In this document: positions 46,045 through 51,849 of the stretch, piece by piece | Layout of the letters: the number at the start of each line of letters is the position of its first letter | How positions within the stretch are numbered: the first letter of the stretch is position 1 | Assembly: GCA_034435615.1 (NCBI GenBank) | Contig: DAOTWZ010000034.1 | Span: 4,381-68,380 of the forward strand | Reading direction: 5' to 3' | DNA: 64,000 nt | Source of the DNA: Dehalococcoidia bacterium | GTDB taxonomy: Bacteria > Chloroflexota > Dehalococcoidia > SM23-28-2 > HRBIN24 | The notes under the pieces: generated by a model | What the model saw: the letters and a program-made list of their open reading frames with translations, nothing else | Told to the model about the DNA's origin: nothing | The model's database searches: none | Translations under genes and position numbers: made by a program

Positions 46045-47430
46045 ATGGACGACCAGGAAGGACAGCCGGAGAGCCCTACCGCCCAGGGGCTCGATCCCCG
46101 GGCGCTGGCCTACACCGTCTCCCTTCCCTTCGACCACCGCCTCTATCGCTACGACATCGCCTGCTCCATGGCCCATGTGAAGATGCTGGCCCGTCAGGGG
46201 ATCGTCCCTCAGGAGGACGCCGAGGCCATCCTGCTGGCACTGGAGGAGATACGCCGGGAGCTGGAGGAGGGCCGCTTCCCTCTGCGGGAGGAGCTGGAGG
46301 ACATCCATCTGAACATCGAGGCCCGCCTCTACGAGAAGGTGGGAGAGAGGGCGGGCCACCTGCACACCGCTCGCTCCCGCAACGACCTCATCGCCACCGA
46401 CCTGCGCCTCTACGTGCGGGACGCCTGTCAGCAGGCCGTAGGAGGCATTCGGGCGCTCCAGCGTGCCCTCCTGGAGCAGGCGGAGGCCCACCTGGACACG
46501 GTCATGCCCGGCTACACCCACCTGCAGCGGGCGCAGCCAGTGCTCCTGGCCCATCATCTCCTCGCCTACTTCCATATGCTGGAGCGGGACATCGGCCGCT
46601 TCCGGGACTGCCAGCGGCGAGCGGACTGCCTGCCCCTGGGCTCCGGCGCCCTGGCCGGCGTCCCCTACCCCATAGACCGGGAGTACCTGGCCAGGCAGCT
46701 CGGCTTCTCCCGCCTCTCCCCCAATTCCATCGACGCCGTGGCCGACCGCGACTTCATCGTGGAGTTCATCGCCGCCGCTGCCCTCTGTCTCTCTCACCTC
46801 TCCCGGCTGGCGGAGGAGATAGTGCTGTGGGCCAGCCAGGAGTTCGGCTTCCTGGAGCTGCCGGCGGAGTTCGCCACCGGCTCCTCCATCATGCCCCAGA
46901 AGCGGAACCCGGACGTGGCGGAGCTGGCCCGCGCCAGGGCTGCCCGCGTCGCCGGCCACCTCACGGCGATGCTGGCCCTCCTGAAGGCCCTCCCGCTCTC
47001 CTACAACCGCGACCTCCAGGACGACAAGCCCCCTCTCTTCGACAGCGTCGACTGCCTCCTGGCCACCCTGGACGTGATGGCGGCCATGCTCCCCCGCCTT
47101 CGCTTCCGCAAGGAGCGGCTGGAGGAGGCCGCCGCCGACCCCTCTCTCCTGGCCACCGACCTGGCCGATTATCTGGTCCGCAAGGGGATGCCCTTCCGCA
47201 GCGCCTACCGGGCGGTGCGGGAGCTGGTGGCCTACGCCCGCGCCCAGGGACGCAGCCTGCGCGAGCTCTCCTTGGAGGAGTACCGCCGCTTCAGCGAGCT
47301 GTTCGACGAGGATGCCCTGACGCTGGACGCCCGCGCTGCCGTGGCGGCCCGGGACATCCCCGGAGGGACAGCCCCCACCCGGGTCCAGGAGGCGCTGCGG
47401 GAGGCCCGCCGCCGTCTGGAGGAGACGTAG
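46045..47430 (+). CDS. argH: argininosuccinate lyase
   Basis: Fumarate-lyase signature GSSIMPQKRNP. Start at ATG 46045; the track ORF upstream overlaps the HAD gene. Confidence 0.9.
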   Translation: MDDQEGQPESPTAQGLDPRALAYTVSLPFDHRLYRYDIACSMAHVKMLARQGIVPQEDAEAILLALEEIRRELEEGRFPLREELEDIHLNIEARLYEKVGERAGHLHTARSRNDLIATDLRLYVRDACQQAVGGIRALQRALLEQAEAHLDTVMPGYTHLQRAQPVLLAHHLLAYFHMLERDIGRFRDCQRRADCLPLGSGALAGVPYPIDREYLARQLGFSRLSPNSIDAVADRDFIVEFIAAAALCLSHLSRLAEEIVLWASQEFGFLELPAEFATGSSIMPQKRNPDVAELARARAARVAGHLTAMLALLKALPLSYNRDLQDDKPPLFDSVDCLLATLDVMAAMLPRLRFRKERLEEAAADPSLLATDLADYLVRKGMPFRSAYRAVRELVAYARAQGRSLRELSLEEYRRFSELFDEDALTLDARAAVAARDIPGGTAPTRVQEALREARRRLEET

Positions 47431-48110
47431 TGAGGCCGGTGAAGATCGCTCCCTCTATCCTCTCCGCCGACTTTGCCCGCCTGGGTGAGCAGGTGCGGGA
47501 GGCGGAGGCGGCGGGGGCGGACCGCATCCACATAGACGTGATGGACGGTCACTTCGTTCCTGTCATCTCCATGGGGCTGCCCATAGTGGAGGCGGTGCGT
47601 CGCGTTACCCGTCTGCCCCTGGACATCCACCTGATGGTGGCCCAGCCGGAGCGTCAGATCGATGCTTTCATGGAAGCTGGGGGCGACATCATCAACGTGC
47701 ACGTGGAGGCGGCCACTCACCTGCACCGCATCCTCCAGGCGGTGAGGGGGCGGGGCCGCCTGGCTGGCGTCTGTCTGAACCCGGCCACGCCCCTGAGCGC
47801 CATCGAGGAGGTGCTGGGGGAGGTGGACCAGGTGATGCTGATGAGCGTCAACCCGGGCTACGCTGGCCAGCCCTTCATCGAGGCGGTGCTAGGGAAGGTG
47901 CGCCGGCTGCGGGAGACGCTGGACCGGCTGGGGCTGTCATCGGTGGAGATAGAGGTGGACGGCGGCGTGACGCCTGAGAACGCGCCTCGCTGTGTGGCCG
48001 CCGGGGCGACGGCCCTGGTGGCCGCCTCCGCCATCTATAACGACCGCGCCAGTGTGGCCGAGAACCTGTCCCGCCTCCGTTTTTCCTGCGCTCCCGAGGG
48101 TGCTGGGTGA
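47430..48110 (+). CDS. rpe: ribulose-phosphate 3-epimerase
   Basis: GTG start overlaps the argH stop (TAGTG). Rpe family with a DVMDGHFVP motif. The last about 13 codons lie in a tandem repeat. Confidence 0.88.
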   Translation: MRPVKIAPSILSADFARLGEQVREAEAAGADRIHIDVMDGHFVPVISMGLPIVEAVRRVTRLPLDIHLMVAQPERQIDAFMEAGGDIINVHVEAATHLHRILQAVRGRGRLAGVCLNPATPLSAIEEVLGEVDQVMLMSVNPGYAGQPFIEAVLGKVRRLRETLDRLGLSSVEIEVDGGVTPENAPRCVAAGATALVAASAIYNDRASVAENLSRLRFSCAPEGAG

Positions 48111-48257
48111 GCGGGTCGTGAGGCGGGAGGCGTGGCGAGACGCCCGCCTCCGTTTCTCTTGCGCTCCCGAGGGTGCTGGGTCAGCGGGTCGTGAGGCGGC
48201 GAGATAGCGAGTCTCCCGCTTCCGTTCTCCTGCACGCTCGAGGGTGCTATGTGCCCG
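48070..48257. repeat. tandem direct repeat, period 72-73 bp, about 2.6 copies
   Basis: Copy 1 is 48070-48142 and copy 2 is 48143-48214; the first 56 bp differ at about 3-4 positions. A degenerate partial copy 3 starts at 48215. Each unit ends in ...GTGAGGCGG[G/C]AG and is flanked by short divergent segments. Confidence 0.8.
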
Positions 48258-48355
48258 GCCTGCCAGGCCCGGCGGCTGGGCGAGGGGTGTCCTGGCCCTT
48301 TTCGTGCTACCGAACCTCCAGGGGCCCGTGGCGAGGGCCTCGTCCGTTCGGTGTC

Positions 48356-48760
48356 TCAGAGGGCGGCCCGCTCCAGGCGGGGGCAGAAGTAGCCCTCCGC
48401 TGGCGCGCCGGGCAGGTCGTCCCAGGTGGCGAGGAGCCGCTCTAGCCTCGCCCGCTGCTCCTCCAGTGCCCTTATCTGTGCCTCCAGCGTCCGCCGACGG
48501 GCCTCCATGAGGTCGCGAAGCTCGTCGCAGGGGCAGCTGTGGGCCAGGATGCTCCGTATCTCCCTGATGGAGAGGCCCAGGGCACGCGCGGTCCGCACGA
48601 AGCGGAGGAGACGCAGGTCGCCCTCGCTGTAGAGGCGGTAGCCGCCCTCGCTGCGAGGCGGCGACGGCAGGAGCCCCACCGCCTCGTAGAAGCGGAGAGT
48701 CTTGGCGCTGATGCCGGCCTGGCGGGCCGCCTCGCCGATGCGCATGGGACGGGTCGTCAT
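48356..48760 (-). CDS. MerR-family transcriptional regulator (Cys-containing effector region)
   Basis: MerR HTH (IGEAARQAGISAKTLRFYE), a coiled-coil dimerisation helix and Cys residues at HSCPC and FCP. Confidence 0.85.
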   Translation of the reverse strand: MTTRPMRIGEAARQAGISAKTLRFYEAVGLLPSPPRSEGGYRLYSEGDLRLLRFVRTARALGLSIREIRSILAHSCPCDELRDLMEARRRTLEAQIRALEEQRARLERLLATWDDLPGAPAEGYFCPRLERAAL

Positions 48761-49533
48761 CTCTTGTAGCCCTCCACGTAGACGCTGACGGCGTAGCTGT
48801 CCGGTCCGGCCTGGCCCAGGGAGGAGGCTGCTCCCGTGCCACCGCAGGAGTAGGCCCCCACGATGCTGGTCCTCACCTCCTGGAAGCCGGCCTCCTCAAC
48901 CATCTTGCGGTAGTCGTCCACCAGGACGGCGCCGGCCAGGCAGCCCGCGTAGGCCTCCGTGCTCTCTCGCACCTCTGGCGGCAGCTCTTGCAGCAGGGCG
49001 ATATCGGAGATGGCCAGGCGGCCGCCCGGCCTCAGGACACGGTAGGCCTCGCGGAAGACCCGCGGCTTGTCCGTGGACAGGTTGATGACGCAATTGCTGA
49101 TGATGACGTCCACGGAGGCATCTCCCAGGGGCAGCTCTTCGATCTCGGCCAGGAGGAACTCCACGCTGGAGAGCCCTCCCTGGAGGGCGAGGCGGCGGGC
49201 CCGCTCCACCATCTCTGGCGTCATGTCCACGCCGATGGCCCGTCCCCTGGGCCCCACCTGGCGGGCCGCCAGGAAGCAGTCGATGCCGGCACCGGAGCCC
49301 AGGTCCAGGACTACCTCCCCCTCCCGCAGGCCGGCTATGGCCACGGGGTTGCCACAGCCCAGCCCCAGGTCCGCGCCGAGCGGGAGGAGTGCGATCTCGT
49401 CCGGGGAGTACGCCAGGCGCCGGACGCTCTGCTGGGCTGACGGGGCGCAGTCGCCGCAGCTACCCTCACTGCGGGCCACCCGTGCATAGGCCTCGCGCAC
49501 TGTCTGCCGTCTGTCCTTCTCGTCCATGCTCAT
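48757..49533 (-). CDS. arsM: arsenite S-adenosylmethionine methyltransferase (ArsM/AS3MT-like)
   Basis: Motifs [37 protein letters not shown] and AGCLAGA, with conserved Cys positions typical of ArsM. Confidence 0.82.
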
Positions 49534-49581
49534 CTCCTCCGGCCTCCCGGCCGACGGTCGGGCCAGCCCCCGCCGCTGGTC

Positions 49582-49755
49582 CTAGAGCTCTCCCAGCTCC
49601 CCGGAACGGATGGCCGCCACCAGGCGGTTCCATTCCTCCCTGGTCAGTCTGGTCTGGTTGCCTGGCTCCCCCAGCAGGACGTGGTCACTGTAGACCACCA
49701 CCTCCGGGCAGGCATCGCAGGCGGGGCAGAGACTGTAACGCTGGCCTTCCTCCAT
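49582..49755 (-). CDS. small DUF397-like protein (57 aa), not in the ORF track
   Basis: ATG at 49755 preceded by GGAGGAGGTGA. It reads MEEGQRYSLCPACDACPEVVVYSDHVLLGEPGNQTRLTREEWNRLVAAIRSGELGEL, which matches the DUF397 pattern (...C.EVa...LtreEW.alva.ir.GE). Confidence 0.55.
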   Translation of the reverse strand: MEEGQRYSLCPACDACPEVVVYSDHVLLGEPGNQTRLTREEWNRLVAAIRSGELGEL

Positions 49756-49854
49756 GGCCTCACCTCCTCCTTCGGTCGTTCGTCGGGGGCTGGCCCCGGA
49801 GGGAAGGCTAGCCCTTCCAGCGACTGGAAGGTCAATAGGGGGGCGCGTCCCGCT

Positions 49855-50070
49855 CTATACGGTGGTGGTCTTCTTGAGGAGGGCGCTCAGGCAGGCGGTG
49901 CAGATGTTGACCCGCTGGCGCTTGCCATCGATGACGAGAGAGCGCTTCTGGACGTTGGCCTTGAAGGTGCGCGGTGTCCTGGGGGCGCGTCGCTCCCAGC
50001 GGCCGGAGTGCTGGTGCCGTATATTCCGCCCGTAGATGGTCCCCTTGCCACAGAACTGACACTTGGCCAT
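49855..50070 (-). CDS. rpmB: 50S ribosomal protein L28
   Basis: MAKCQFCGKG... L28 family. Start at ATG 50070 with an AAAGGTGGGGG RBS; the track ORF is extended upstream. Confidence 0.85.
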   Translation of the reverse strand: MAKCQFCGKGTIYGRNIRHQHSGRWERRAPRTPRTFKANVQKRSLVIDGKRQRVNICTACLSALLKKTTTV

Positions 50071-50083
50071 ATCTGCCCCCACC

Positions 50084-50152
50084 TTTACCGCAAACAGGCG
50101 CCCTGCTAGAATGCGCAATCGGCATCTTAGCATTTGCGTTGCCAACGGGCAA
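50084..50152. promoter_or_regulatory. divergent overlapping promoters: plus-strand TTTACC-17-TAGAAT for the DAK2/YloV gene; minus-strand TTGCCC-17-TAAGAT for rpmB
   Basis: Plus strand: -35 at 50084-50089 and -10 at 50107-50112. Minus strand: -10 is the complement of 50124-50129 and -35 the complement of 50147-50152. Confidence 0.35.
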
Positions 50153-50223
50153 GGTGACGGAAGACGAGAGAGGAGCCTGCCACCGACGTCGGCTCTTCCC
50201 CCGGCACCCGGGGCCGGGGCGCC

Positions 50224-51849
50224 ATGGCTGCCCTGACGGCCGCTGACCTGTTCCAGGCCCTCCAGGCGGCCCTGTCCGTCCTGGAGGCGCAGGAAGAGGC
50301 GCTGAATGCCATCAACGTCTTCCCCGTCCCCGACGGCGATACCGGCACCAACATGCTCCTTACCCTCCGCTCCACCCTGACGGAGGCCGAACGCCAGGTG
50401 CCGCAGCGAGAGAACGCCTCCGTGGCGCAGCTACTGGAGGCACTGGGCCGGGGCGCTCTCATGGGGGCGCGCGGCAACTCCGGCGTCATCCTCTCCCAAA
50501 TAGTGCGGGGGCTGGCCAGGGGAGTCGGCCCTGCCCGGGAGCTGGACGCCAGGGCCCTGGTCCAGGGGCTGGAGGAGGCCACCCGTCTAGCCTATCAGGT
50601 CATCACCCAGCCCAGGGAGGGCACCATTCTCACGGTGGTTAGGGAGGCGGCGGAGGCCGCCCGCGCCGCCCTGGAGCGGGGCGAGACGGACGTGGTGGCC
50701 GTCCTGGGTGAGGCGGCCCGCGCTGCCAGAGAGTCGGTGGAACGGACGCCCCAGCTCCTCCCTGTGTTGGCGGAGGCCGGCGTGGTGGACGCCGGGGGCC
50801 AGGGGCTCTGGCTTGTCCTGGAGGCGATGAGGCGCCACCTCACGGGGGAGCCGCTAGAGACCCTCGCCCCTCCGGGACGGGCCTCCCTGCAACGGGAGTG
50901 GGTGACCACCACCCAGGAGTTGCACCAGACCGGCCAGTCCCGCTACGGCTACTGCACCGAGTTCCTGGTGGAGGGACAGGGGCTGGACAGCACCGCCATA
51001 CGGGCCCGCATGGAGGAGCTGGGCGACTCCGTCCTGGTGGTGGGCGACGAGCGACTGCTGCGCGTCCACCTTCACACTGACGACCCCGGGGCCGCCATCA
51101 GCCACGGCACCCGCGTGGGCGAGCTCTTGGAGGTGAAGGTAGACAATATCCAGCGCCAGGCCGACCGCTTCCTGGACCAGCACGAGGCGGCGGCGGAGGT
51201 GGAGGCGCCGGTGGTAGCGGTGGCCCAGGGTCGGGGGCTGGCAGCGGTTCTGCGCAGCATGGGCGCCCTGGTGGTGCCGGGCGGCCCCACCATGAACCCC
51301 AGCGCCGGCGATCTCCTGGACGCCATACAACGTTGCCCGGGTGACGAGGTCATCGTCCTCCCCAATGACAAGAATATCGTGGCCGCCGCCCACCAGGCGG
51401 CGGAATTGACGGGGAAGCGGGTGGCCGTGGTGCCCACTCGCTCCGTCCCCCAAGGGATCGCCGCCCTCCTGGCCTACAGCCCGGAGCGTAGCCTGGAGGA
51501 GAACGTCAGGCTCATGGAGGAGGCGGCCGCCGCTGTCCGCACCATAGAGGTGACCCGGGCGGTGCGGGACACCAGGGCCAGCGGTCTGACGGTCCGGGAA
51601 GGGGACGCCATCGCCATCGTGGACGGTGAGCTGAAGGTGGTGGCTGCCGGCCCGGAGGAGGCCCTCCAGAAGGCGGTGGAGGGGTTGGGTGTCCAGGAGG
51701 GGTTGCTGACCGTCTACTACGGCGCCGAGGCGACGGCGGAGCGGGCGGAAGCCCTGGCCGAGTCCCTGCGCCGGCGGTTCCCCCAGTTAGAGGTGGAGGT
51801 GGTGGCCGGCGGGCAGCCTCACTACCCCTACATAGCCTCCCTGGAGTAG
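50224..51849 (+). CDS. DAK2 domain fusion protein YloV
   Basis: Dak phosphatase-like N-terminal domain (DGDTGTNM) with a DegV-like C-terminal half. It neighbours rpmB as in Firmicutes. Confidence 0.88.
   Translation: MAALTAADLFQALQAALSVLEAQEEALNAINVFPVPDGDTGTNMLLTLRSTLTEAERQVPQRENASVAQLLEALGRGALMGARGNSGVILSQIVRGLARGVGPARELDARALVQGLEEATRLAYQVITQPREGTILTVVREAAEAARAALERGETDVVAVLGEAARAARESVERTPQLLPVLAEAGVVDAGGQGLWLVLEAMRRHLTGEPLETLAPPGRASLQREWVTTTQELHQTGQSRYGYCTEFLVEGQGLDSTAIRARMEELGDSVLVVGDERLLRVHLHTDDPGAAISHGTRVGELLEVKVDNIQRQADRFLDQHEAAAEVEAPVVAVAQGRGLAAVLRSMGALVVPGGPTMNPSAGDLLDAIQRCPGDEVIVLPNDKNIVAAAHQAAELTGKRVAVVPTRSVPQGIAALLAYSPERSLEENVRLMEEAAAAVRTIEVTRAVRDTRASGLTVREGDAIAIVDGELKVVAAGPEEALQKAVEGLGVQEGLLTVYYGAEATAERAEALAESLRRRFPQLEVEVVAGGQPHYPYIASLE

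Follow-up and report, generated by a model that had tools for sequence, protein, structure and literature searches.

The tandem repeat at the 3' end of rpe in the window (the whole 64,000-nucleotide stretch of DNA analysed here) was in all likelihood produced by local tandem duplication of a 73-nt unit, lying within a species-specific insertion at the junction of the convergent genes rpe and merR. The host is an uncultured hot-spring Chloroflexi-like bacterium, and the repeat adds one more case to a familiar type of event, the ordinary local duplication.

Tandem Repeats Finder places the array at 48070-48248 with a period of 73 nt, 2.5 copies, 85% matches and a score of 249, the second-best array in the window scoring 86. 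This agrees with the first-pass annotation, which had described a 72-73 bp tandem repeat of about 2.6 copies made up of two near-identical units and a degenerate third. Copy 1 (48070..48142, + strand) comprises a 57-nt hairpin core and a 16-nt linker and carries the rpe stop codon; copy 2 (48143..48213, + strand) comprises a core and the 15-nt linker CGAGATAGCGAGTCT; copy 3 (48214..48275, + strand) is an old unit, now decayed, that every strain of the species carries. The start-to-start distances between units are thus 73 and 71 nt. The cores of copies 1 and 2 (48070-48126 and 48143-48199) are 95% identical, with three differences in 57 nt (T/C, C/T and G/C), and the third core (48214-48270) retains 63% identity in an ungapped comparison. 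A 21-nt piece of the core occurs at two sites only in the window, which has a G+C content of 69.7%, and two or more matches were obtained in none of 100 shuffles. Between copies 1 and 2, about 7 of the 16 linker positions are different, as against 3 of 57 in the cores; linker divergence so far in excess of core divergence is odd for a simple recent duplication and may be a sign that the junction was imprecise, or that the core is under selection or subject to gene conversion.

Two other kinds of repeat system were considered and rejected. As in CRISPR arrays, direct repeats are parted here by short variable segments; unlike in CRISPR arrays, where several repeats of about 23-55 nt alternate with unique spacers of similar length and cas genes usually accompany them, the repeat is 57 nt long and partly intragenic, the would-be spacers are 15-16 nt long and related to one another, there are 2.5 copies, and the neighbours are rpe, merR and arsM with no adjacent cas genes, so the misfit already recorded in the first-pass annotation holds. 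A variable/template repeat pair of a diversity-generating retroelement was set aside on the grounds that the differences between copies are not adenine-specific and that no reverse transcriptase gene is adjacent.

The repeat intrudes into coding sequence. The gene rpe (ribulose-phosphate 3-epimerase, 226 aa; 47430..48110, + strand) has a translation ending in ...SRLRFSCAPEGAG*, and its last nine codons (FSCAPEGAG) and TGA stop come from copy 1, to which the first-pass annotation had assigned about 13 codons and the stop. The family model TIGR01163 matches the window Rpe with 271.6 bits over residues 5-212 only, and the tail therefore lies outside the family profile. All 119 Rpe homologues listed (67-85% identity; the closest named ones are from Dehalococcoidia/Chloroflexi MAGs) read ...ENM(A/S)RL(R/K) and then continue into an unrelated native tail, which in the nearest orthologues listed (about 80-85% identity) is AALAELRA or a near variant (...RLRAALAELRA); the FSCAPEGAG tail is found in 0 of the 119. 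Judged against these orthologues, the final nine residues of the window Rpe are evidently not native and are encoded by inserted repeat DNA, as the first-pass annotation had suspected. The same annotation had pointed to a +1 ORF at 47992-48207 that repeats the tail peptide; it does so out of copy 2, because 73 = 3n+1. At its other end, the GTG start of rpe shares one base with the TAG stop of argH (taGTG, 47428-47432), which suggests translational coupling of argH and rpe; the corresponding overlap in relatives is 4 nt.

Comparison with relatives identifies the DNA around the repeat as an insertion. Seven loci whose Rpe is 83-85% identical (L004-L010, obtained from five distinct protein look-ups) were compared by means of their gene tables and alignment A1. 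In these the rpe and merR stop codons overlap by 4 nt in the palindrome CTAG, the end of rpe lying 3 nt past the end coordinate of merR, and from this 4-nt overlap we infer that the ancestral state was spacer-free. Alignment A1 delimits an insert of 278 nt (48078..48355) which has no counterpart in the more distant relatives and replaces about 24 nt coding for the native Rpe tail. The gap between rpe and merR measures 245 nt in strains of the bacterium HR25 type and 170 nt in other strains, and on these alignments the spacer is best read as an insertion of about 170-245 nt specific to the species of bacterium HR25. Derivation of the insert from flanking DNA or from the ancestral junction was rejected, local alignments to either scoring no better than shuffles.

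The gene order around the junction is argH and rpe on the + strand, followed by merR, arsM, a conserved 57-aa ORF and rpmB on the − strand, so that the repeat does sit between convergent rpe and the MerR/arsM genes as first described. The MerR-family metal-responsive regulator (48356..48760, − strand) is preceded by arsM (arsenite methyltransferase; 48757..49533, − strand; NF008823, 312 bits against a cutoff of 263), whose stop codon overlaps the merR start by 4 nt. The window comes from bacterium HR25, which has no classification at NCBI; its MerR-like protein is GBD14963.1 and its methyltransferase GBD14964.1. A literature search found no paper on HR25. In the relatives with 83-85% identical Rpe, merR directly adjoins the small conserved ORF and arsM is absent (L004-L010), with no tblastn match to arsM in L004 or L008. 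We considered that merR and arsM might be a horizontally acquired cassette that brought its own 3' region, and rejected this for merR: apart from the protein itself, the closest homologues are the syntenic orthologues (59-61% identity), and merR is vertically inherited. The value of 59% is the lowest among the neighbouring genes (65-85%), and is not far below the 65% of dak2. Relative to the relatives compared, arsM is inserted directly upstream of merR in this species only, and control of arsM may be a role for which the MerR-family regulator was recruited. The 57-aa ORF (49582-49755, − strand) contains the motif CPACDACP and matches nothing in Pfam or NCBIfam. Every relative examined has it in the same place between merR and rpmB, at about 70-72% identity, and it likely encodes a real small metal-binding or zinc-ribbon-like protein.

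Within the species, the number of units varies. The spacer is 289 nt long in the window and in contigs L001 and L002, and 214 nt long in ten contigs (L012-L018, L020, L025 and L026) from at least nine other samples, which have the same gene order including arsM. According to alignment A2, the 214-nt allele is without exactly one 73-nt unit, and the contigs that carry it have one good unit and one decayed unit. Four spacer alleles were distinguished in all, one of 289 nt and three of 214 nt that are 1-2 substitutions apart, and the ten contigs encode members of the 90% identity cluster of the window Rpe, proteins that are one residue apart. In these contigs, copies 1 and 2 represent a strain-level copy-number polymorphism, in which copy 2 corresponds to the single good unit of other strains and copy 1 to the extra, strain-specific unit. 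The correspondence is not exact: the single good unit resembles copy 2 in its linker and at positions 14 and 17 and has the TGA stop of copy 1. Such a mosaic of copies 1 and 2 is not producible by one crossover deletion; it is in keeping with a duplication in the HR25-type lineage and a small number of substitutions thereafter.

The two-copy allele was obtained from runs DRR101363, DRR101365 and DRR101366 only. From the DRR10136x run numbers, the window allele and contigs L001-L003 probably share one sample series, and the two-copy allele has in that case been seen in essentially one population. This restricted occurrence, together with the Logan contig L003, which ends inside copy 1, might raise the suspicion that the extra unit is an artefact of assembly at a single-copy locus. 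We regard this as extremely improbable, since L001 and L002, two Logan contigs assembled independently, have the same two-copy sequence as the deposited MAG, and since copies 1 and 2 are distinguishable by three core positions and their linkers and together span 146 nt, which is short relative to typical reads. Outside the repeat, the same two Logan contigs (DRR101363 and DRR101366) show 35 differences to the window within 46539-47855 (about 2.7%) and are identical to it over 47856-51311, including the repeat, merR, arsM and rpmB; the change, which falls inside rpe, has the look of a breakpoint in a mosaic, of recombination, or of the consensus of mixed strains.

Copy 3 has diverged by 9.7% between strains, as against 2.0-2.6% in flanking rpe and argH. 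This roughly fourfold faster divergence, together with the loss of its fold (described below), indicates that the extra copies appear not to be maintained. Divergence is also raised beyond the repeat. When the HR25 strain is compared with L012-type strains, the segment from copy 3 through merR and arsM (48214-49533) is 7-11% divergent, with 18 gap columns in arsM, and the flanks (argH, rpe, the rpmB region and dak2) are 2-3% divergent. This pattern suggests either that a more distant lineage contributed DNA by recombination or that selection on the arsenic-related module has been relaxed or diversifying.

The first-pass annotation had supposed that each unit could fold on itself, and its ends are indeed complementary: the unit start CCCGCCTC pairs with the core end GAGGCGGG over 8 nt. 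Copy 1 forms a 57-nt hairpin with a predicted energy of −33.2 kcal/mol on the + strand (z −3.1) and −27.4 kcal/mol on the − strand (z −3.7), and the stem uses several G-U pairs, which are mismatches in DNA. The folds of the other copies are less distinctive with respect to shuffles (z −0.4 and −0.8 for copy 2; z +0.6 and −0.2 for copy 3), and folds of the whole region are unremarkable (z −1.6 and −0.6). Downstream of the array a weak terminator-like hairpin, GGGCGAGG-GGTGT-CCTGGCCC, can be read directly from the + strand at about 48278-48298, followed by TTTT at 48299-48302. A terminator-like hairpin had been expected at 48290-48325; the structure and its T run exist but lie at about 48278-48302, and a consensus terminator scan of 47300-49800 called none, including this hairpin with only four T. 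On the − strand, a fold of the form ACCGAAC...GTTCGGT without a U-tract (48309..48352) lies directly downstream of the merR stop and is kept in all spacer alleles. Its reading as an attC-like site was rejected: it departs from RYYYAAC/GTTRRRY, which we take to be the relevant consensus, and is presumably too short. A tRNA scan of the window for a possible integration site found none. Like intrinsic (Rho-independent) terminators at junctions of convergent genes, these stem-loops are rich in GC and directly follow the stop codons of both strands, one of them with TTTT; in contrast to such terminators, they have no proper U-tract, the consensus scan is negative and the repeat hairpins overlap coding sequence.

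A functional structured RNA transcribed from the + strand of the rpe 3' region, acting as a 3'-UTR small RNA, a stabiliser or a bidirectional terminator or insulator with copy-number dosage, would account for several of these features. The + strand fold of copy 1 beats its − strand fold by virtue of G-U pairs, differences between copies and alleles preserve the base pairs (position 11 changes from U-G to C-G, position 17 from C-G to U-G), the array is followed by the weak hairpin with TTTT, and the convergent genes once overlapped and are now apart. We nevertheless think it improbable that the region encodes such an RNA. Besides the negative terminator scan and the ordinary whole-region folds, copy 2 alone is no more stable than shuffles and copy 3 has lost its structure. 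No Rfam family reached the gathering threshold in the window, and with the cutoff relaxed to E<=10 the repeat is still unmatched, the only hit being a spurious HOTAIR_2 match outside it. Alignment A3 is 96% identical, which is too little variation for covariation, and the relatives do without any spacer. The corresponding evolutionary proposal, that the hairpin units newly arose, at the former rpe-merR stop overlap, as a bidirectional terminator or insulator with a variable number of copies, or as a 3'-UTR small RNA, we consider just as doubtful; if true, strains would tune the separation of convergent transcripts by gaining and losing units, in a lineage that inserted arsM into the merR operon.

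We searched for further copies of the unit at several levels. In the window and related loci (about 100 kb), blastn-short with the unit found no further copy. The covariance model R1, made for the hairpin with its 22 base pairs and run over 162 kb, scored the good copies at 88-90 bits and copy 3 at 18.8 bits, and everything beyond the known copies had E>0.01. In a metagenome contig collection, a 20-mer of the core matched the orthologous locus L020, which lies on a 181-kb contig of this species (assembly ERZ511473), and three unrelated chance sites; the same 20-mer gave two unrelated chance matches only in species-representative genomes and none in viral contigs. The insert had no blastn match in plasmids and phages, and none of the six-frame repeat peptides had a match at E<=10 among 5.8 billion protein clusters, from which 8000 word-sharing candidates were scored, so that this negative carries moderate weight. 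The degenerate pattern TCCGTTN{1,2}TCNTGCNNNCNCGAGGGTGCT gave 0 matches in the genome and metagenome contig collections because other strains read CCGCTT there, and exact-word searches in general are blind to copies whose core is more than about 5-10% diverged, as well as to any copies in unassembled regions. The best weak match to the 3' half of the unit in the window, CTGGGTGAGCAGGTGCGGGAGGCGGAGGCG, lies in the 5' coding region of rpe (47481-47510); it is identical at 27 of 31 positions (blastn-short E 0.001) and is the next covariance-model match after the real copies (17 bits, E 0.48). This similarity probably reflects GC-rich codon bias, and could hint at the source of part of the unit.

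In the DNA searched (the window, related loci and public collections), these results do not support the unit as a member of a dispersed element family, and the suggestion of the first-pass annotation that it might be REP/BIME-like or a miniature mobile repeat found no second copy to sustain it. The unit does share with REP, BIME and REPIN elements a tandem arrangement and a position between convergent genes, its hairpin may pass for an imperfect palindrome, and placement at convergent junctions is typical of BIMEs; a member of such a family, spread by a RAYT-type transposase and clustered at this junction, would look much like this. However, the 64 kb window, the roughly 100 kb of related loci, the R1 search and the public collections, which include the 181-kb contig of the species, yielded no second locus, and no RAYT gene was noticed in the vicinity. 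The 57-nt unit is longer than typical REPs, its G-U-rich stem is mismatched in DNA, and the oldest copy is decaying. On the DNA searched, we conclude that a REP-type origin is very unlikely.

A MITE-like remnant that inserted into the palindromic CTAG of the stop overlap and was then duplicated internally would explain why every more distant relative lacks the inserted spacer, and would be in keeping with the 8-nt complementarity of the unit ends, the second insertion (arsM) on the other side of merR and the block from copy 3 through arsM that is 3-4 times more divergent between strains than the flanks. On reading the sequence, however, the 278-nt insert shows neither a target-site duplication nor longer terminal inverted repeats, there is no adjacent transposase gene, and no other copies were present in the collections, plasmids, phages and protein clusters searched. 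The chance that such an element was the source is slight, and local duplication is the reading we follow.

For the local duplication we propose the following history. The ancestral rpe and merR stops overlapped in CTAG with no spacer, as they do in the relatives. In the lineage of bacterium HR25, about 170 nt then came to stand in place of the last 8 rpe codons, giving Rpe its FSCAPEGAG* tail. Residual similarity suggests that an early duplication of the unit gave rise to the copy that has since decayed. Finally, in the HR25-type strain only, the good unit doubled to yield copies 1 and 2, as comparison with the ten other contigs shows. The duplication most likely occurred by replication slippage or unequal recombination at the hairpin: each unit opens with the 10-13-nt direct repeat CCCGCCTCCG(T/C)TT, at which slipped-strand mispairing or recombination could have taken place, and a stable hairpin would favour either. 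The extra copies probably have no specific function. At most, the stem-loops may act as 3'-end structures or terminators that part the convergent rpe and arsM-merR transcripts.

In its behaviour the locus resembles minisatellite-like VNTR loci, with which it shares copies that follow one another head to tail at intervals of tens of bases, a copy number that varies between strains at one locus (the 289-nt and 214-nt alleles), an array overlapping the 3' end of a gene and an older copy in decay. It differs from them in having only 1.5-2.5 copies, a unit that forms a strong hairpin and linkers that are unusually diverged between the young copies. The finding matters little beyond annotation. It does offer, in the one-unit and two-unit alleles, a possible strain marker for this uncultured thermophile, and, on a small scale, a clear illustration of how two convergent genes that overlap can gain a spacer and how duplication then multiplies a hairpin unit within it. 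Were the units functional terminators, the locus would be a case of de novo insulation of convergent operons.
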